Source: a virus
DNA: 64,000 bases
Strand: one strand, 5' to 3'
Virus record (IMG/VR): IMGVR_UViG_2974641675_000001
Location: 66,260-130,259 of that record
The first letter of the stretch is position 1, and each line of letters begins with the position of its first letter. The notes beneath the pieces are model-generated. The model was not told the origin of the DNA, did no database searches, and worked only from the letters and a program-made list of their open reading frames with translations. Below are positions 7,492 to 57,322 of the stretch, piece by piece. A program made the position numbers and the translations under genes.

Positions 7492-7501
7492 GCAACATAA
7501 A

Positions 7502-14814: not shown

Positions 14815-16092
14815 ATGACTATTCCGATCTATCGCTATCCCTTGGATGGCACCGGCACCAGCCCGGATAACCTGGTGGTTGGAGAAGAACACCAGCTCTC
14901 CAACCGAGCAATTCGTTGCGTAGCGCCGACCTACGGTGGCTTCTACGCTGAATCCGCAGTGGTGACGGACTTCAACACTGGCGTACCGCTGGTGCGCGGT
15001 GTTGACTACTACTTTGGTGAGCTGTTCGAGTTCCCCACTGGTCGTTACGGTAAGGAAATCTTCGGCCTGATCGTTATCACCAAGCCGAACGTTGCTGCCG
15101 TTTCGATCAATTACCAAGCACTGGGTGGTGATTACTCCTATTCCATGGACGCAATCATCGCCATGATCGACAACCTGAATCTGGACACGCGTCCGGTGGA
15201 ATGGGGTGCGATCATTGGTCGTCCGGCGCTGTTCGATCCGGCAACGCACTGGCACGATGCTGGTGACATCTACGGCTTCGAATACGTAGTGAGCGCGCTG
15301 ATCGATCTGCGCAACGCCATCCTGACGGGTGACGTGGCCAGCCACGATGAGATCTATCGCTACATCGATCGCTGGGCAGCTCAGCAGAGCGCGGCCATCC
15401 AAGCAGTTTCCGATGCACTGCACACGCACATCGTCGACTACACCAATCCGCACCAAACCACGAAGGCACAGGTAGGGTTGGGACTGGTGTCGAACTTTGC
15501 GACAGCGCTGCAAGCTGACATGAATACTGGTACGGCGAACAACCTGTTCGTGACGCCAGATATCGTTGCCGCGTACGTGACTCAGCAGGCAGTGAATCCG
15601 CTGCTTGCTCACATTGCCGACAAGGGTAACCCGCACCAGACTACCGCAGCACAAGTGGGACTGGGTAATGTCCAGAACTATGGTGTTGCTTCCCAGCCGG
15701 ACATGAATGCCGGTACGCGTGACGACGTCTATCTGACGCCGCTGAAGGTCGCGACCTATGTGACAAACGTCGCGGTTAACCCGATGAATGCGCACATTGC
15801 CAATACCAACAATCCGCATGCCGTGACACAGGCACAAGTTGGGTTGGGTAGTGTTGCGAACTATCCGGTCGCTACTCAGGCTGAAGCGCAAGCTGGAACG
15901 GCTAACAACCGCTACATGACTCCCTGGCTCGTAAACCAAGAAGTCATGCAGATGCTCAACAACGGTGCATTCGACGGTCGCTATATGCGGTATGGCACCG
16001 CCACTGATGGTTCGACCTGGGTTAGCGCTGGTATCGCCTACGTGTTCGTATCGGGAGCATGGCGACAGTTCTGGCCGCCTGTGTGGCAGTAA
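14815..16092 (+). CDS. Second tail fibre protein with NPH/QVGL repeats
   Basis: Three repeats of the same unit; N-terminus YRYPLDGTGTSPDNLV resembles YQYPFDPSGTSSANRI of the previous gene; aromatic C-terminus YVFVSGAWRQFWPPVWQ. Confidence 0.75.
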   Translation: MTIPIYRYPLDGTGTSPDNLVVGEEHQLSNRAIRCVAPTYGGFYAESAVVTDFNTGVPLVRGVDYYFGELFEFPTGRYGKEIFGLIVITKPNVAAVSINYQALGGDYSYSMDAIIAMIDNLNLDTRPVEWGAIIGRPALFDPATHWHDAGDIYGFEYVVSALIDLRNAILTGDVASHDEIYRYIDRWAAQQSAAIQAVSDALHTHIVDYTNPHQTTKAQVGLGLVSNFATALQADMNTGTANNLFVTPDIVAAYVTQQAVNPLLAHIADKGNPHQTTAAQVGLGNVQNYGVASQPDMNAGTRDDVYLTPLKVATYVTNVAVNPMNAHIANTNNPHAVTQAQVGLGSVANYPVATQAEAQAGTANNRYMTPWLVNQEVMQMLNNGAFDGRYMRYGTATDGSTWVSAGIAYVFVSGAWRQFWPPVWQ

Positions 16093-16100
16093 GAGATGTG

Positions 16101-16139
16101 AAAACCACTCCGCCCAAAAGGTGGAGTGGTTTTTATGTC
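16101..16139 (+). terminator. Hairpin/terminator after the second fibre gene
   Basis: AAAACCACTCC...GGAGTGGTTTT followed by TATGTC. Confidence 0.6.
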
Positions 16140-16167
16140 TGGTGTTATTTGCTAAAAGGAATTTATC

Positions 16168-16545
16168 GTGGCCACCACCTCCTCTACAACCACTGATGTG
16201 CAAGGGTATGACATCAATACTCTCCGCAACACAATTAACAGTGTGCGGGCTCGTATTGCTGCTGGTCAACCCATCAGTGCCAACCAAATCGCTGACCTTG
16301 CTTGGGTGTACAACACTTGGATTCAGCATACCCACAACTACTACGACTATTACTGGATCGCTTACGGTAATACGTCTCCCTATGGCACCACTGCTGTATG
16401 GAAAACTTCTGGCAACGTTGGTGTAGGGTATTTCTCACCACCTGGGGCTGGACAAACTGTTCAAGCTGCTCATGTGAATGGCTTAGCGGGTCTGGTCAAT
16501 GCGATCCGATCCCATACCCACTATTCGCCGGACGGCAGTTACTAA
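16168..16545 (+). CDS. Small fibre-tip-like protein with two HTH (HxH) modules
   Basis: GTG start with AAGGA RBS; modules GQPISANQIADLAWVYNTWIQHTH and GQTVQAAHVNGLAGLVNAIRSHTH. Confidence 0.7.
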   Translation: MATTSSTTTDVQGYDINTLRNTINSVRARIAAGQPISANQIADLAWVYNTWIQHTHNYYDYYWIAYGNTSPYGTTAVWKTSGNVGVGYFSPPGAGQTVQAAHVNGLAGLVNAIRSHTHYSPDGSY

Positions 16546-16826: not shown

Positions 16827-17713
16827 TGAAAACTGTCTTTATCAAAAGCGGCGGCTACTACGAAACGCCAGGTGTCGCTGTCTCCGGCGCTATCAACGAC
16901 GCCTTCGACTTCAACGTGAGTCAGCATTGCCGTTCGAATGCGCTGTTCATGCTCGACTATGTCAGTCGCGAATACCGCCTCAGCCTTACCGTTGCCTCTG
17001 GTGACATGAAAGATGCGTTCGCGCGTCTCGACATGGATCTGATCACCAAGGCCGCGGAAGAGCATGGCTTCTCTTATGTCGGCCTGGTGGCTGACGAAAA
17101 GGCGATGATGGCTCGCCCGGATGAATTCCTGCGCGACTTGTCCGTCGTGACCGTCTGCAAGGAAACCGGCAAGTTCCTCGATGCCAAGTCCGGCACCGCT
17201 CTGACCGGCAACAACATCACACCGGTGATCTACTGCGTGAAGATGGCTGACAGCACGTACGCCATGATCCTGAGCCAGATGGCCAACGTGATGCCGAGCA
17301 TGGTCGACAATCCGAAGGTGGGTCGTGACGACATGAACGTCATCGTGGTCAATGACGGCGATGCCATGCGTAGTCAGTTCGTGGACGTCAGCTTCCACGG
17401 CGCTACCAAGCATTTCCGCAACAACGACCTCGTTACTGGTTTCGCAGTGTTTGCTTGGCCGAATGCTCTGATTGAAGTTAATATCTTCAAGGACACGCCG
17501 CTCGCCGCTGAGTTCAAGAAGAACTTCGAACTGGAAGTCGACAGCAGCTTTGATGCCAAGATCGTCGACGGCAAGGTCGTTATCCAGATGCCGCCTTCGT
17601 GTCGCACTGGCTATCTGTCGATCAAGCTGAAGACCACACCGCTGTACGAAGACGTCTCGTCGCGCGAGATCAAGGAAATGCTTTCGTTCGACTTCATCGT
17701 GACGGTTGTTTAA
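16826..17713 (+). CDS. Orphan 295-aa protein translationally coupled to the Cys-rich peptide
   Basis: TAATG overlap and strong C-ending codon bias; no motif recognised. Confidence 0.75.
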   Translation: MKTVFIKSGGYYETPGVAVSGAINDAFDFNVSQHCRSNALFMLDYVSREYRLSLTVASGDMKDAFARLDMDLITKAAEEHGFSYVGLVADEKAMMARPDEFLRDLSVVTVCKETGKFLDAKSGTALTGNNITPVIYCVKMADSTYAMILSQMANVMPSMVDNPKVGRDDMNVIVVNDGDAMRSQFVDVSFHGATKHFRNNDLVTGFAVFAWPNALIEVNIFKDTPLAAEFKKNFELEVDSSFDAKIVDGKVVIQMPPSCRTGYLSIKLKTTPLYEDVSSREIKEMLSFDFIVTVV

Positions 17714-27144: not shown

Positions 27145-28029
27145 TTACGGCGTGGTCAGGCCATTGGTGATGCTGCCATCAACCGCCGACAGAGCGTACA
27201 GCGGTTCATTGACACCAACGTCCATCTCGATCGATACACCGGTGTTGGTTTGCAGCAGCGGGTTGTAGACGGCCACGTGAGCAGCAATCTGGCAACCAAT
27301 CACTTCTGCGAACTGGAACGAACCACCACCATAAGCCGGTGCGTTGATCATCTTGTCAACGCCAGTGCACAGACCCAGTTCCGATACGATCGCATAGCGC
27401 TCGTCGTCGTAGATCACCTTGGCCACGTTCAGCATTTCAGCCACGTCCTGTTCGGTCATGGCGATCTGCATACGAGCACGGGCCGACACGTAGTCAGCAT
27501 TGATCACGTTGGTCGCAGTGTTGGAAAGTTGCTGCGGCGTCGGCGTCAGGTTAGCCTGCGTCGGCACGAAGTTGGTGACGGTAGCGATACCGTCTTGCAC
27601 CTGGGTGTAGTACATGCCCACCGACAGGTTGCTCTTGTCCAGACGACGACCGTAGTAAGCGTAGTACACCACGCCATTGCGGGTTTCTTGACGACGCAGA
27701 ACATACTTGGCGCGATCAATGGCGGTCAGGTCTTGGTTGACTTCGCGCAGCACGAAAGGCAGCTGACCAAACAGGCCGGCGTCGGTAGCGCGGTGTTGTA
27801 CCACTTCGTTGAGCGCGATACCGTCGGTGCCTACGATCATCGAGTGACCACGGTTACCCCAGACGTAGTAGCCCAGACTCGGGCGATCGTCCACAGCCGG
27901 CAGAGTGTCCTTCTGAACACTCAGGTATTCGTTCAGTGTCGTGTACTGCGGATAGGTCTGCGGCAGGCCCAGCAGCAGGCTGGTCATGACATCGGCGCCG
28001 TAAACGGTACGGGTTACGTTATTGTCCAC
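27145..28029 (-). CDS. Virion structural protein (baseplate/tail candidate)
   Basis: 294-aa ORF with GAGG RBS; structural context. Confidence 0.65.
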   Translation of the reverse strand: MDNNVTRTVYGADVMTSLLLGLPQTYPQYTTLNEYLSVQKDTLPAVDDRPSLGYYVWGNRGHSMIVGTDGIALNEVVQHRATDAGLFGQLPFVLREVNQDLTAIDRAKYVLRRQETRNGVVYYAYYGRRLDKSNLSVGMYYTQVQDGIATVTNFVPTQANLTPTPQQLSNTATNVINADYVSARARMQIAMTEQDVAEMLNVAKVIYDDERYAIVSELGLCTGVDKMINAPAYGGGSFQFAEVIGCQIAAHVAVYNPLLQTNTGVSIEMDVGVNEPLYALSAVDGSITNGLTTP

Positions 28030-38872: not shown

Positions 38873-38882
38873 GGTAATATGT
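38873..38882 (-). promoter_or_regulatory. phiKZ-type early promoter motif (ACATATTACC)
   Basis: Identical 10-mer at 38873, 46129, 57313 and 62282, always intergenic upstream of minus-strand genes. Confidence 0.6.
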
Positions 38883-48949: not shown

Positions 48950-49876
48950 TTATTGCTCGGCCGCCGCCAGCGCCTTATTCAGCGCAAGGTAGGCGTTGAT
49001 TTCTGCACGAGCGACCTCTACTGCGGCAGAGAGGATCTGCCGCTGGATCTGGGACATCGATTCCCACGGAATAACAAACCGCAGTTGCTGGTGTTGGCTT
49101 GCCGCTGCATTGTAGGCCTCACGATTTGCCTGCACGGAGTCGTAATACATCCGGTAGACTTGCTCGGCAGAGATGTCGGGCTGATGAACCACGAGATGCA
49201 TCGCCGCACGCGAGATGTCGTTATACGGAAGTGGCTTGAAGATTTCACCGTTAGAGCCAAAGTTGCTCAGGAAAGTCGACAACGACTTAACTACCAATTC
49301 GGTTTGGTCAACTGTGATCAGTCTCGCCACACCTTCCACCACCTTCGGGATACAGAACTCGACATAAGCACTGTCATTCTGGTCGTACAGCGCCACACGA
49401 ATCACCACGTCCCAGTTCGGCTGATCAGGCACACGACGCAGCGTAAAAGAGCTAAGCACCTCCAGCTGCGGTGCCTGTGGATTGAGTTCTGCATAATAAC
49501 CAACGAAACGCCGCACCGATTCGGAGAAGGCGCGGACATTGACTGCATGCGGTGCCAGCTTGTCCTGCATGATGAGGCCGTGCTTGGCCAGTTCGCGTTT
49601 GATGAAACTCTCAACACGAGTCAGCGGGTCCGTAAGCACGTTATAAAGAACGGTGCTAGGTTCTTCCAGAAGGTGGAGTTTTGCCCACTGGTTGCGATCA
49701 ACCGTGTTGAGGGTGGCACGCAGCATGCCGCGCAATTTGGAATAGTGGCCGATCTTCTTAGCACCATCGAAGATCGATGCCAGAGTTTCGACCTCAACCG
49801 GCTTACCGAGTTGCAGGTCGCGTTCCAGGAAATCGCGCAGAGTGACAGCGCATACGGCAGGGGTATCCATTTGCAT
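48950..49876 (-). CDS. Hypothetical protein
   Basis: AAGGA RBS; 308 aa. Confidence 0.65.
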   Translation of the reverse strand: MQMDTPAVCAVTLRDFLERDLQLGKPVEVETLASIFDGAKKIGHYSKLRGMLRATLNTVDRNQWAKLHLLEEPSTVLYNVLTDPLTRVESFIKRELAKHGLIMQDKLAPHAVNVRAFSESVRRFVGYYAELNPQAPQLEVLSSFTLRRVPDQPNWDVVIRVALYDQNDSAYVEFCIPKVVEGVARLITVDQTELVVKSLSTFLSNFGSNGEIFKPLPYNDISRAAMHLVVHQPDISAEQVYRMYYDSVQANREAYNAAASQHQQLRFVIPWESMSQIQRQILSAAVEVARAEINAYLALNKALAAAEQ

Positions 49877-50030
49877 CCTTTGGTTGTTATTCAGGCGGTG
49901 ATTACTTTCCTATCAACACTATCTAGGTGTGGATACAAAAATAATCAGCGGCATAAGAGGCACATTGCCCCAGCTCAAGCCATCTGGCCGCACCCCTACG
50001 CTCAGTAAGGGATTTAGGTTGATGGTCGTG

Positions 50031-50532
50031 GCTGGGGCGTATGCTTTTCATTGAGTGGCGCCAATCGTTCAACAAAGTGATAGCTAAGGGAAGTCTTGGA
50101 GAGCATCAGTCTACCAAGAGCGACACGAAACTAGCATCGGTGTCTATTACGTTATTGCCGAGTCCCACACAGGAACTATTACTCGAAGGGGAGTGTATCT
50201 GGAGCGAGAATCTCACTCAGTTAGGGCATGGTCATTTACCCTCAGATATACGCGAGCGCATCGCTGACGTACGCAAGTATGTCTGCAATCAACGAGGCGC
50301 CGCTGGGACCGTGAGCGACTGCATGTAAGTCTGAGTGAGATATGCTAGCGTACCTACTTCTCACTGTGCCGAACAGCCCTCTCGCTGGCGCAGTCACCTG
50401 CCAGCGTCGATATCGCACGCGGCTGCTCAGGCCGCGGTTGAAGAGGGCTTTGCATCCAGGACACAGGGTACGAGCCAGCCCGAAATACGGAGCTGGCCAA
50501 TGAGAAGTAGGAGTTACGCCAGAAGCCCCAGC
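50031..50532. ncRNA. Candidate ~500-nt structured non-coding RNA
   Basis: Termini pair; nested perfect 11-bp helices 50210-50220/50331-50341 and 50353-50363/50501-50511; several further hairpins; no credible ORF. Confidence 0.5.
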
Positions 50533-50628
50533 TCAGATAGCTGAAGAATCCGAAGATGTTTGTTCTCCTTGTTCTTTGTTGAGTGTTGTGCACTCGTGGT
50601 CAAATAATTAGCCACCCCATGTAATTTC

Positions 50629-50880
50629 TTACAGGGATGCTGTTTTACAGAGATATTCATCAAGCGCTTGTGCAGTGCGATCGATTCTCCATTGATTCAG
50701 TAACACGTTTGCCGAGGCAATTGCAACGGCGGGAGGATCTGGTTCTTCAGTGATCACTCCTGCCGCTAGCTCAGCATCATGTTTAGCCTTAGCACGATGA
50801 TACGCGAGATGCTTATCAAACGTAGCGCGAGCTGTCAACTTCGACGGTGTAGCTGATGCTACGCGCCAGTTGGTCGGCAT
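50629..50880 (-). CDS. Hypothetical protein (start uncertain; overlaps the upstream gene)
   Basis: Fills the gap; 65-nt overlap with 50816-51244. Confidence 0.35.
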   Translation of the reverse strand: MPTNWRVASATPSKLTARATFDKHLAYHRAKAKHDAELAAGVITEEPDPPAVAIASANVLLNQWRIDRTAQALDEYLCKTASL

Positions 50881-54490: not shown

Positions 54491-55287
54491 TGCGGCGTAG
54501 TGGTGTGAGTTGTGCGATGGAAGAAAACCGCGTGATTAGAGCCGACTGGAATACGGTCCTTTATCGCCGTTGCAAGCCTGACCATGATCTGTGGCAGAGC
54601 ATTCAGATTCTTACCGGCGTTAACGGTAGCATCTGCCTGCAGTGTTACAGATACATGGACGGTGCCTGTCGTATTACGCTTCTTACAGTTATCAATCACA
54701 AAGCGCTCACCATTGCCAGTGCTAGTCACCGCATAGGTTTTGAGCTGTTCTGCTGCATCAACAATACAAGCCCAGCCGTCTTGCGCCATCGCCTCGATCA
54801 TTTCATCAACTAGAATCGGGATGGAGTCTACCCCAATTTCCAAATCACGCAGTTTGTGCCAGCGGTCCTTGTGATAAGCACTAATCGAGCTAGTTACGTG
54901 GTCACTAATCTTTCCAGTGGCATCGTACTTACCGATAACGCTAACCGTTAGTCGCACCGGGCGTTGTTTCTGCTTAGAAATGACGTTGAGCTGATTACAG
55001 ATATCGATGCAGGCACTCTTCTGATCACTGGGTTCAGATAGAGCCGCTGCATAAGACGCTAAGTCCGTGAACGGAACGAGCTTGTCATCTGTCTTGTTTT
55101 TCGGAGCAGGGGGCTCTTCCGGCAATGCAACTTCCGGCTCGCCGGAAGAGTCCCTTGGTGCTTCCTGTTCACTATCTTCCCGCATCTCTTTGGTTATCTC
55201 TTTGGGAAGAATGACGGCACCGATAGCAACCAAAGCATACCCCACCACGGCGCGGATGCTCAGCAGAAGGCGTGTGAGTAGTTTCAT
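54484..55287 (-). CDS. Membrane-anchored hypothetical protein
   Basis: GGAGG RBS; N-terminal TM AVVGYALVAIGAVILP. Confidence 0.6.
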   Translation of the reverse strand: MKLLTRLLLSIRAVVGYALVAIGAVILPKEITKEMREDSEQEAPRDSSGEPEVALPEEPPAPKNKTDDKLVPFTDLASYAAALSEPSDQKSACIDICNQLNVISKQKQRPVRLTVSVIGKYDATGKISDHVTSSISAYHKDRWHKLRDLEIGVDSIPILVDEMIEAMAQDGWACIVDAAEQLKTYAVTSTGNGERFVIDNCKKRNTTGTVHVSVTLQADATVNAGKNLNALPQIMVRLATAIKDRIPVGSNHAVFFHRTTHTTTPQA

Positions 55288-56297
55288 TTTCCTCCTTTGA
55301 GGAGCATAGCAACGAAGGTCTCGTTGATCTTGTTGATGAGTGCGTACTTGATCGTTTCACCCCGGTCGACCAAATAAGTCGGCGGGTTTACGATCTCGCG
55401 CTCTTTGATCACCGGGATCAGGCGATCAATCACAGCAGCGATTACGCCAGCATACTGATTGAATACCGCCGACCAATCACCCGAAGCGATCAGTGGAATG
55501 ATCTTCCGCAGTTGGCGAACTTCAGGGTCTTCGCCCATCACTTCCAGATAATGATCAAACAGCTCGCCCAAAGTGAGCGTGCGGTTAAGACCAAGCCACG
55601 GAATCATCCGGCTAGTGGTAGCTGCCCAACCCATCAGCAGTCGATACAGGCCATCCGTAACTTCTGAACGCCGTACTTCTTCCCAGCACTTGATGATCTC
55701 CACAGCTTTGGCGGCACGACCGTAACCAGTGTGCTTGTACTTGTTCGGATCGTACGAAACCATTGCGAAGTGATGCAACTGGGTTACCACTTCCAGAGCA
55801 TTCCAGGACAGCTGAATATTGTCCAAAGCGATGCGGAAATCCAGATTACAGCGGCTGATCTCCTGCACGAAGAAGTCGAAGCTCACGAAGTTCAGCTGGA
55901 TACGAGTCTCTCTGACATCGCACCGACCCATCGGCGCCATTCCGCCTGGTGTTATGCTAATGGCTTCGATACTGAGATTGTGGAGCTGCTTAAGCGTGAA
56001 CGAGATCTGCGGCGGCAGGATGTCTTCTTCCTTGAACTGCCGGGTGTCAAAGTTGATGGCCTTGACATACTGGATCAGCGGACCGTGATACACGACGTAG
56101 AAGTCGTAATCCGAGTCCGGGCCAGCGTAACCTTTTGCCTGCGAGCCAAACAGGCCAGCAAACAAGAGCGTGATGTTGTATTGCTTGGCGATTTCTTCCA
56201 AGCGTTCTTTGACATGCGGCAGATACCATTGCTTAGCTGCTTTGTGTGCTGCACGCTGTTGTTCGAGTGCTACCGTTGTCATCCTTATTCCCGCCAT
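55284..56297 (-). CDS. Pol-beta-superfamily nucleotidyltransferase (RlaP/PF10127-like)
   Basis: LFAGLFGSQAKGYAGPDSDYDFYVVY. Confidence 0.75.
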   Translation of the reverse strand: MAGIRMTTVALEQQRAAHKAAKQWYLPHVKERLEEIAKQYNITLLFAGLFGSQAKGYAGPDSDYDFYVVYHGPLIQYVKAINFDTRQFKEEDILPPQISFTLKQLHNLSIEAISITPGGMAPMGRCDVRETRIQLNFVSFDFFVQEISRCNLDFRIALDNIQLSWNALEVVTQLHHFAMVSYDPNKYKHTGYGRAAKAVEIIKCWEEVRRSEVTDGLYRLLMGWAATTSRMIPWLGLNRTLTLGELFDHYLEVMGEDPEVRQLRKIIPLIASGDWSAVFNQYAGVIAAVIDRLIPVIKEREIVNPPTYLVDRGETIKYALINKINETFVAMLLKGGK

Positions 56298-56360
56298 TCA
56301 GTAGTTCATTAGTGACTAGGCCGTGCTTAGTTTCAAACACGGCCTAGCCCTGAAGATGGA

Positions 56361-57266
56361 TCACACGGTGATCTCTTCACTTTCTTGATCTTCACCATTG
56401 AGAAGTTCTTGATACAGGTCAATCATCTCGCGTGTTTCCTCAGCTCGGGTCGGGACGCGACGCGGATGCTTGCGAACGTAGTCGGTAGCCTCTTGCAGAA
56501 CCTTGTCGGTAAAGATCTGCAACAACCCCATGGCTTCCTCGCTCACACCTTGCGGGGCTACGAAAGGGCTGCGCTCAACGCGAGCACGAATCACACCAAG
56601 CACCGGCCGCTGGAAGCCTTCCGAGAATGCCCCGCCCCACTGATCGATGTTGAGCGTGATCAGTTCATCGACGGTACGGCAATGCTGCTTATCGCCGCCA
56701 ATGTAGGCCAGTACACGATGCGCCGACCAGAGGATGCCCAAGTAGGTGCGTTCCTGTTTGAACTCCAGCCCGCTACCCTGAATCTGCGAGAGCGTGTGCA
56801 TCGACTTGGTGATGTGTTCTGCGCAACGGAACACAAGGTTCTCAACGCAAAAGTAGTCTTCCGCCACCGGGTCGAACAGAAACTTGATCCGTTCGTTCTC
56901 CTTAGCGAAACTTTCGTACGCCATCAGCGAGAACGTGCTGCAGTTCATGATGCCGCGCAACAGCGAGCGCATGTCCAGTATCGAGACCATAATCGGCCAA
57001 CCCAGCTCGTGTGTCAGCTTGGTCGACAGATCTGCCAGTCGCTTGCGACGCTCTTCAAGCGTGCCCTCGAAGAAAGGCACGTTCGTCATGTTGATGTAAT
57101 CCGACACCGGACGATTGAGCAAAAAGCACATGTCGATGTCGGAGTTCGGGTCATTGAAGCCGCGCAGCATGGAGCCATGAATGGCCGAAGCTACCACTTC
57201 CAGTCCCAGATGGCGGGATACGAGCACGCTCGCCTCAGCGAGTTTTTCCTTGTTGTTGTCCAGCAT
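56361..57266 (-). CDS. Pol-beta-superfamily nucleotidyltransferase (RlaP/PF10127-like), tandem paralogue
   Basis: VASAIHGSMLRGFNDPNSDIDMCFL. Confidence 0.75.
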   Translation of the reverse strand: MLDNNKEKLAEASVLVSRHLGLEVVASAIHGSMLRGFNDPNSDIDMCFLLNRPVSDYINMTNVPFFEGTLEERRKRLADLSTKLTHELGWPIMVSILDMRSLLRGIMNCSTFSLMAYESFAKENERIKFLFDPVAEDYFCVENLVFRCAEHITKSMHTLSQIQGSGLEFKQERTYLGILWSAHRVLAYIGGDKQHCRTVDELITLNIDQWGGAFSEGFQRPVLGVIRARVERSPFVAPQGVSEEAMGLLQIFTDKVLQEATDYVRKHPRRVPTRAEETREMIDLYQELLNGEDQESEEITV

Positions 57267-57312: not shown

Positions 57313-57322
57313 GGTAATATGT
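57313..57322 (-). promoter_or_regulatory. phiKZ-type early promoter motif (ACATATTACC)
   Basis: Repeat copy upstream of the NTase pair. Confidence 0.6.

Follow-up and report, generated by a model that had tools for sequence, protein, structure and literature searches.

What does a densely coding phage genome keep in a stretch of several hundred nucleotides (nt) that holds no recognizable gene? The question is raised by a gap in the genome of the Ralstonia jumbo phage RP12 (complete virus record IMGVR_UViG_2974641675_000001, 279,845 bp), a phiKZ-related jumbo phage (PMC11530567) whose growth is independent of the host RNA polymerase (PMC5468394). We analyzed a window of 64,000 nt of this genome (bases 66,260-130,259 of the record; positions below are those of the window), where the gap is flanked upstream by an open reading frame (ORF) of 83 amino acids (aa) at 50,629-50,880 and downstream by one of 308 aa at 48,950-49,876, both on the minus strand. 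A first-pass annotation, made from the letters of the window, had proposed an unannotated large phage non-coding RNA (ncRNA) at 50,031-50,532. This proposal is supported by synteny in three phage lineages, by covariation far above that of controls, by a weak or absent coding signal, and by the lack of a match to any known family. We consider it very probable that the element is a conserved gene for a structured RNA belonging to a new family. Most likely, with a probability that we put at about 55-60%, the gap is the gene for a multi-domain structured ncRNA of ~650 nt, read from the minus strand and made as a discrete, stable, stand-alone and trans-acting RNA.

A gene-free stretch conserved in three phage lineages

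The coding gap noted by the first-pass annotation is real, as its ORFs are all without a match in Pfam or PHROGs. Searches by tblastn with the 308-aa protein retrieved only the Ralstonia phages FLC1-1B and FLC4-3B (33% identity), and two other neighbouring proteins likewise matched only these two phages (hereafter FLC), at 46-48% identity. Upstream of their 308-aa homologue, the FLC phages carry an unannotated stretch of ~720 nt in FLC1-1B and ~920 nt in FLC4-3B, whose record leaves a small upstream ORF unannotated. An exact 25-mer common to RP12 and FLC led to one more genome, IMGVR_UViG_3300049460_000312 (283 kb, complete; hereafter the UViG), at the syntenic place. The element is a gene-free stretch of 0.6-0.7 kb at the same position in all three known lineages (RP12, FLC1-1B/FLC4-3B, and the UViG).

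Nucleotide identity between RP12 and FLC is 55% in the element and 52-54% in the flanking genes, and between FLC and the UViG it is 82% and 74%, respectively. By this measure, constraint on the gap is no weaker than on the coding sequence around it. In the UViG, a 135-aa ORF on the minus strand, absent from RP12 and FLC, is inserted between the element and the following 305-aa gene, which argues for the element being a module of its own. The N-terminus of this additional ORF resembles a signal peptide.

The distribution of the element appears to be narrow. Among 50,697 phage records, blastn with the gap as query matched FLC1-1B and FLC4-3B only, and in the same records neither the element nor the three neighbouring genes tested had a copy outside the RP12-FLC clade. 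A scan of IMG/VR with exact and gapped patterns of the conserved blocks returned only the one UViG, a scan of 185,579 prokaryote genomes returned no copy, and a protein-guided search with the flanking 308-aa protein added no further relatives. One soil DNA run holds part of the element, as a 245-nt contig that is identical to RP12 and brings no new variant. A 20-mer scan of metagenome contigs gave a single match, a 24-nt identity to the invariant block at positions 541-564 of Ga0314705_10119723. This contig does not align to the element outside these 24 nt and, by its letters, reads like a glutathione-transferase gene; by a rough estimate a 24-nt chance match is expected about once per hundred scans of such a collection, and we took it as chance.

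A multi-domain fold maintained by compensatory changes

The folding energy of the 502-nt stretch is -198 kcal/mol on both strands, and none of 100 dinucleotide shuffles folds as well (z = -4.87 on the plus and -5.10 on the minus strand). Among 29 other 500-nt windows of the same strand, z had a mean of -1.47, a standard deviation of 1.32 and a minimum of -3.86, so that the element, at -4.8, is the most extreme. By thermodynamics alone it is an outlier, not a dramatic one. On the minus strand, z is -5.1 in RP12, -3.45 in FLC and -4.25 in the UViG.

Stronger evidence comes from the comparison of homologues. From an unedited, plain MAFFT alignment of four sequences, RNAalifold predicted 173 pairs in 27 helices, 46 of these pairs being changed on both sides. 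Covariation in homologues, on which the earlier proposal was to be judged, is therefore present and lies far above both kinds of control: the share of paired cells is 92.6% and drops to 36-39% once the 3' partners have been slid by 1-3 columns, and the 46 compensatory pairs compare with 15.6 +/- 3.2 in shuffled alignments (none of 500 reaches 46) and with 1-7 in the slid ones. This count is conservative, as MAFFT shifts RP12 by a few columns in helices P2-P6. The features of the conserved model and of its surroundings are as follows.

49,952-50,601, minus strand: the whole RNA, ~650 nt, with the predicted 5' end at ~50,601 and the predicted 3' end at ~49,952, both placed by conserved signals that bound the conserved stretch in the three lineages
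50,613-50,639, minus strand: hairpin P0 with a GAAA loop and a nearly invariant core, CUGUAAGAA(A/U)UUAC, overlapping the stop codon of the upstream 83-aa gene
50,598-50,607, minus strand: putative start signal UUAUUUGACC, by comparison with the TATG of phiKZ
50,563-50,570, minus strand: Shine-Dalgarno-like motif AAGGAGAA, invariant and near the 5' end, with an AUC (not a standard start codon) 7-8 nt later
50,354-50,557, minus strand: stop-free frame of 67 codons (69-70 in the relatives), from the AUC to a conserved UAG, with weak coding evidence
50,342-50,551, minus strand: 5' domain (P1-P8), a multi-branch structure closed by the long-range helices P2 and P3, matched by covariance model R1
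within the 5' domain, minus strand: hairpin P1, holding the invariant GAGCUGGG
50,515-22 with 50,345-52, minus strand: long-range helix P2
50,501-11 with 50,353-63, minus strand: long-range helix P3
50,473-98, minus strand: hairpin P4, in the multi-branch beside the arm P5/P6
50,418-36, minus strand: hairpin P7, with the conserved loop UGAGCA
50,383-50,406, minus strand: hairpin P8, with a GNRA tetraloop (GUGA in RP12, GCGA in the relatives) and all nine counted pairs kept
50,210-50,341, minus strand: central domain, closed by the 11-bp helix X:Y (50,331-41 with 50,210-20)
50,310-50,329, minus strand: 20-nt, nearly invariant block CUUACAUGC(N)GUCGCUCACG
50,266-50,290, minus strand: invariant 25-nt block, with a 5-bp hairpin, the loop ACAUAC and a 3-nt bulge
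50,242-23, minus strand: small hairpin in the central domain
50,199-50,208, minus strand: segment Z, just 3' of Y, ending in a conserved CCAGA that is complementary to a conserved UUCUGG at 50,518-23
50,066-50,177, minus strand: 3'-central domain, comprising hairpin H11 (50,161-77), whose loop UGUGU is conserved, and an arm of several helices that in RP12 is built differently in detail from that of the relatives
49,960-50,044, minus strand: 3' domain, a long hairpin of ~85 nt with helices P14 (GCAUA/UGUGC), P15 and P16
49,949-49,959, minus strand: tail CUCUUAUGCCG, a near-canonical copy of the hairpin-TTTATGCCG module described below, with a U-rich tract at this place in FLC and the UViG

Seven helices were registered separately on conserved flanks or loops; all three lineages keep 47 of their 48 pairs, and 27 are compensatory. 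Compensatory changes affect 9 of 9 pairs in P8, where three unrelated stem sequences stand beneath the GNRA loop, 7 of 11 in X:Y, 4 of 7 in P2, and 3 of 8 at the base of the 3' hairpin, where FLC1-1B shows a G.U intermediate at a pair that is A-U in FLC4-3B and the UViG. The fold also predicts a sequence that was held out: a covariance model of the 5' domain (R1), built from FLC and the UViG only, recovers the RP12 copy, to which it aligns over its full length (50,344-50,526, minus strand, E 6.5e-5). In a scan of the whole RP12 genome this was the only match (E 2.3e-4), and by the same model the element is single-copy in each genome, a second FLC1-1B match (E 0.009) being probably noise.

Altogether, at least 15 helices are maintained by compensatory changes, and these variable helices carry invariant blocks: the 25-nt hairpin, the 20-nt block, GAGCUGGG, and the GNRA and UGAGCA loops. 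The blocks that the three lineages share in the same order are CUGUAAGAA (in P0), AAGGAGAA, UGAGCUGGG, CUUACAUGC(N)GUCGCUCACG, the 25-nt block, CCUGUGUGG, GCAUACGCCC, and GGGCAA..UGC. The 25-mer is the longest exact match in a 9-kb comparison of RP12 with its relatives, and its hairpin is a candidate binding site. With ~650 nt (above a bound of 400 nt), many covarying helices and weak or negative coding tests, the element has the operational sequence characters of the large structured ('ornate') ncRNAs.

All seven pairings listed in the first-pass annotation are found in the sequence, with a single slip in position (TACGCC lies at 50,516-50,521, not 50,515-20), and the comparison with relatives now separates the conserved from the RP12-specific ones. 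The helices 50,210-20/50,331-41 (X:Y), 50,353-63/50,501-11 (P3) and 50,383-89/50,400-06 (P8) are retained in the relatives with compensatory changes. In the helix 50,375-82/50,442-49 the 3' strand AGGGCU is conserved, but its 5' partner lies at a different position in the relatives. The two end-to-end pairings and the putative pseudoknot (50,131-37/50,342-48) are present in RP12, but the former are not conserved and the latter has no counterpart in the aligned FLC and UViG sequences. In their place, the conserved model has helix P2 and a local 3' hairpin. Indeed, GGCGUA at 50,515-21 is part of P2, with its partner at 50,345-52, and not of an end-to-end helix, while the segment of the relatives homologous to 50,031-38, GCCC(G/A)CCC, pairs with a downstream GGGUGGGC. 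The same option exists in RP12, where GCCCCAGC can pair with GCUGGGGC at 49,967-74, and this base of P15 covaries: GCCCCAGC/GCUGGGGC in RP12, GCCCGCCC/GGGUGGGC in FLC1-1B, and GCCCACCC/GGGUGGGC in the UViG. It follows that the RNA exceeds the length first proposed and that its 3' end is a local hairpin of ~85 nt. The originally delimited stretch (50,031-50,532) is structured, but the element extends ~80 nt past its left edge and ~70 nt past its right edge.

Two further pairings are leads rather than findings. Y can pair with Z in place of X in all three lineages, which makes an alternative X:Y/Y:Z fold possible, and the conserved UUCUGG and CCAGA could form a long-range contact.

Assignment of the strand

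The strand, which the first-pass annotation had left unresolved, can be assigned to the minus strand with moderate confidence. Read on this strand, the curated helices defined by covariation contain 11 G.U cells and no A.C cell, and on the plus strand these 11 become A.C mismatches. The minus strand has 14 stacks of at least 5 bp that all three lineages preserve and that include one or more compensatory pairs, the plus strand has 5; the alifold energies are -139.9 and -127.4, with covariation terms of -8.7 and -3.1, respectively. The minus strand also gives the better z in all three lineages, most clearly in the UViG (-4.25 versus -1.50), and the GNRA loops of P8, as well as a UACG loop in P4 of the UViG, exist on the minus strand only. 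Finally, a greedy ORF call puts the neighbouring genes on the minus strand, the consensus early promoters in the window are all on it, and the terminator modules are likewise oriented.

That the functional RNA would instead be an antisense or divergent transcript of the plus strand is very improbable. The plus-strand z of RP12 is nearly as good (-4.87), and counting G.U against A.C over all predicted pairs is symmetric, leaving the strands undecided (union 73 versus 70). However, this all-pair count is uninformative because each strand's prediction picks its own wobbles, and since it fails to separate the strands, our assignment is based on the curated helices and longer stacks, together with the energies and the context. 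The plus-strand z is worse in FLC (-2.85) and in the UViG, long conserved stacks are fewer on that strand, the two plus-strand TATTAC words within the element lack the early-promoter context, and the terminator modules point the opposite way.

Coding potential of the element

On the plus strand no frame is shared, the long ORFs lying in different frames across lineages. The minus strand has, in each of the three lineages, one open frame of 67-70 codons that follows a perfect Shine-Dalgarno-like motif and does not begin with ATG, GTG or TTG. Beyond the first 210 nt, indel lengths are not divisible by three.

The 5' third might nevertheless encode a protein of 67-70 residues from the non-standard AUC, which would make the element a dual-function RNA or partly an mRNA. 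A frame this long is open by chance with a probability of 0.05-0.11 per sequence (dinucleotide shuffles), an invariant AAGGAG lies 7-8 nt before it, the UAG that closes it is shared by the three lineages, its indels come in multiples of three, and in a hand count of the first 24 codons 12 differ between FLC and the UViG, 7 of these being synonymous. However, differences are flat across codon positions (18/17/25 between FLC and the UViG, 34/27/35 between RP12 and FLC), the C-terminal two thirds are almost unconserved as a protein, and the small frame has no match in Pfam or PHROGs. Moreover, the same bases form P2, P3, P4, P7 and P8 with many compensatory changes, and a second frame of the region is nearly stop-free too. 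We therefore regard a coding role as distinctly improbable.

Transcription signals around the element

The word TATTAC occurs 80 times in RP12, and about 20 of these copies lie before genes and have in common a long upstream consensus (A-rich block ... acaTATTACc). These copies are nearly all on the minus strand, with examples in the window at 38,879, 46,135, 57,319 and 62,288. By its sequence and placement, the acaTATTACc consensus probably represents the early promoters of RP12, used by the virion RNA polymerase. The nearest one upstream of the element on the minus strand is at 57,319, ~6.7 kb away.

The commonest intergenic signal in RP12 is a GC-rich hairpin with T(T/C)TATGCCG directly after it. 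The motif has 110 matches, and the two-sided form, CGGCATAAA-hairpin-TTTATGCCG, is frequent. This hairpin module marks most gene boundaries and is also used by FLC1-1B and the UViG. Examples in the window are at 7,501, 11,089, 23,758/23,788, 33,527, 43,610, 44,562, 54,457, 57,891, 60,948 and 63,443. In phiKZ, TATG is the motif of late promoters and its G is the transcription start (PMC4666361). Judged by sequence, the GC-rich hairpin-TTTATGCCG is a putative combined terminator and phiKZ-type TATG start module. Together with the acaTATTAC early promoter word, it provides a first transcription-signal map for RP12.

The element appears to end with such a module. Its 3' hairpin (49,960-50,044) is followed by CUCUUAUGCC, one base off the module motif T(T/C)TATG(C/T)(C/T), and shares with the module the canonical base (GCAUA ... 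UGUGC, within the general form GCAUA ... U(G/A)UGC), the tail CUCUUAUGCCG and the orientation. The difference is one of size: canonical hairpins have 8-14 bp and a tetraloop, while the element adds ~75 nt inside (P15 and P16) and ~560 nt of conserved structure before. The 3' hairpin thus looks like a standard terminator into which ~75 nt of extra conserved helices have been inserted.

At the other end, P0 might be either the terminator-like end of the preceding gene or a recognition hairpin. The region 10-11 nt after it reads TTTATG-AACC in the UViG, TTTATA-GAACC in FLC and TTATTTG-ACC in RP12, the module upstream of the element being canonical in the UViG only. If these signals after P0 are start signals, the RNA starts near 50,601. 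The phiKZ middle-promoter motif AAanTTACc was considered for P0 and rejected, as P0 is one base short of it and its 4 matches genome-wide do not form a class in RP12. A consensus scan for sigma-70 promoters and simple terminators gave nothing above chance.

Comparison with known RNA families and systems

The first-pass annotation could not match the element to tmRNA, RNase P or introns, and broader searches agree with it. Rfam 15 gave no match at gathering score in the whole window, and at E <= 10 only scattered chance matches in RP12, FLC1-1B and the UViG, none of them recurrent, with GOLLD, ROOL, OLE, raiA and HEARO among the families compared. ARAGORN detected no tRNA or tmRNA in the window, and Rfam gave no tmRNA match. 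Group I and II introns can be set aside, as neither Intron_gpI nor Intron_gpII matched at E <= 10 in the three lineages, the genes on either side are separate, the upstream one being closed by its own stop at P0 and the downstream one starting from its own ribosome-binding site and ATG, with a whole extra gene in between in the UViG. The models of self-cleaving ribozymes (hammerhead, twister, HDV-like and others) did not match at E <= 10 either, and a CUGAUG word at ~50,110 is not kept in the relatives. In a search for antisense targets in the RP12 genome, the invariant blocks matched only themselves. The element is not mentioned in those papers on RP12, FLC1-1B/FLC4-3B and jumbo-phage transcriptomes that could be searched, and is undescribed in the searchable databases and papers.

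The closest analogy is with GOLLD and ROOL, large 'ornate' RNAs that are often borne by phages or prophages and have been studied by cryo-electron microscopy (bioRxiv 10.1101/2024.12.08.627333 / PMC12286853). Like them, the element falls in the 0.5-0.8 kb class, has many covarying helices, is phage-borne and non-coding, and comes without a known biochemical function at its discovery. It differs in that it does not match their covariance models even at E <= 10, is single-copy with no tRNA gene in the window, and resides in a proteobacterial phiKZ-related jumbo phage rather than in Lactobacillales or lake phages.

In the phiKZ and 201phi2-1 jumbo phages, small RNAs and RNAs derived from 5' untranslated regions (UTRs) have been mapped by ONT-cappable-seq (PMC11512511). 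These are also non-coding and located between a phage promoter and a terminator, and some are positionally conserved among jumbo phages. However, they were filtered to <250 nt and are mostly products of premature termination, whereas the RP12 element is ~650 nt long, multi-domain, and known from sequence alone.

In lying close to the predicted 5' end without a standard start codon downstream, the invariant AAGGAG recalls STAB-SD elements. These are Shine-Dalgarno-like sequences near the 5' end of an RNA that bind the 30S subunit and stabilize the RNA without translation, as in Bacillus cryIIIA and phage SP82. The STAB-SD examples are from Gram-positive systems and tied to RNase J.

Possible function and alternative explanations

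Structured RNAs of more than 500 nt are rare in bacteria and phages and, to our knowledge, nearly all of those whose function has been solved are ribozymes or complex machines. As a trans-acting RNA, the element could be transcribed by the phage's own RNA polymerases, either from the TATG-like start ~20 nt after P0 or by read-through from the promoter at 57,319. Transcription would terminate at its own 3' hairpin, the enlarged copy of the standard phage terminator, yielding a discrete RNA resistant to exonucleases. By analogy with STAB-SD, the 5' AAGGAG without a start codon may protect the 5' end by keeping a 30S subunit bound there. The covarying helices would form a scaffold, and the invariant hairpin and loops displayed on it would be offered to a partner, either a protein or a nucleic acid, of the phage or of the host.

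Several observations weigh against this reading, in addition to the undecided all-pair wobble count and the open minus-strand frame described above. Only three lineages are available, with FLC and the UViG close to each other, so that most compensatory changes come from one or two branches, and P5/P6, as well as the arm at 50,066-50,160, have no confident alignment between RP12 and its relatives. RP12's own start signal is degenerate (TATTTG, not TATG), no RNA run is present among the public sequence runs that hold the element, its expression, ends and strand being all inferred, and our analysis gave no pointer to a partner or a reaction.

The degenerate start signal would fit a cis-acting role, in which the element would be part of a polycistronic mRNA, as a long structured spacer or 5' leader through which the downstream 308-aa gene would be controlled at the level of processing, stability, translation or termination/antitermination. 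Its two neighbouring genes have the same orientation, the nearest early promoter on that strand is ~6.7 kb upstream, RP12 and FLC both have the 308-aa gene after it, and the mutually exclusive pairings X:Y and Y:Z, possible in three lineages, recall those of attenuators. However, 650 nt with at least 15 helices is far above the size of known leaders, and the element ends in a phage terminator/promoter module before the next gene. Moreover, the UViG inserts a different gene before its 305-aa gene while leaving the element unchanged, and the element is separated from the 308-aa gene by a small conserved hairpin and a ribosome-binding site. We therefore hold a cis-acting role to be rather unlikely. 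A role at the DNA level, as a replication origin, an RNA-primed origin or a packaging site, might be suggested by so large a conserved gene-free region in a dense genome, but is less credible still than a plus-strand RNA: the covarying helices P2, P3 and X:Y span 110-170 nt and need one long single strand, the direct-repeat search reported no iterons or tandem repeats, and the element is single-copy and located at 116.2-116.9 kb, away from the extreme of the cumulative GC skew (maximum at 125.7 kb). Finally, z values of about -3.9 occur in some coding windows of this genome, as a chance structure in a non-functional spacer might, but synteny, invariant blocks, covariation far above controls and the recovery of RP12 by the held-out model make such an explanation extremely unlikely.

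The RNA could also be a functional 'ornate' RNA with an activity of its own rather than a passive scaffold, such as a ribozyme, a ROOL/GOLLD-like multimer or a bistable switch between X:Y and Y:Z, and it may even be an RP12-specific factor for independence from the host polymerase; we regard this more specific proposal as speculative and unlikely. RP12-specific factors have been suggested by Matsui et al. to explain host RNA polymerase independence, unlike in RSL2 and RSF1 (PMC5468394). The carrier phages RP12, RP31, FLC1-1B and FLC4-3B are in culture and their host is a culturable plant pathogen, so that expression, structure, partners and deletion phenotype are directly testable, unlike for most large RNAs known from metagenomes only.

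Neighbouring genes and other observations

The genes neighbouring the element lie on the minus strand (greedy ORF call). The flanking genes have full-length matches to PHROG families of unknown function, Pfam and PHROGs give no functional hint for the adjacent genes, and an Atlas look-up of the 308-aa protein returned no usable match. About 5 kb upstream of the RNA, at 55,284-57,266 on the minus strand, the same early operon is headed by two adjacent nucleotidyltransferases of the Pol-beta type with weak matches to RlaP, which is associated with RNA repair; no link of this pair to the RNA could be shown.

A crude ORF call revealed further ORF-free gaps of 400-630 nt outside the window, at 15,715-16,343, 17,160-17,576 and 27,546-27,952 of the RP12 genome. 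These are not paralogues of the 5' domain of the RNA, of which model R1 finds one copy, and other non-coding elements are possible there. Between the terminator of the RNA and the 308-aa gene, at 49,877-49,945 on the minus strand, lies the small conserved hairpin mentioned above, whose stem reads ACAC...GUGU in RP12 and ACUCA...UGAGU in FLC within conserved flanks, and which may be a 5'-UTR element of the 308-aa gene.

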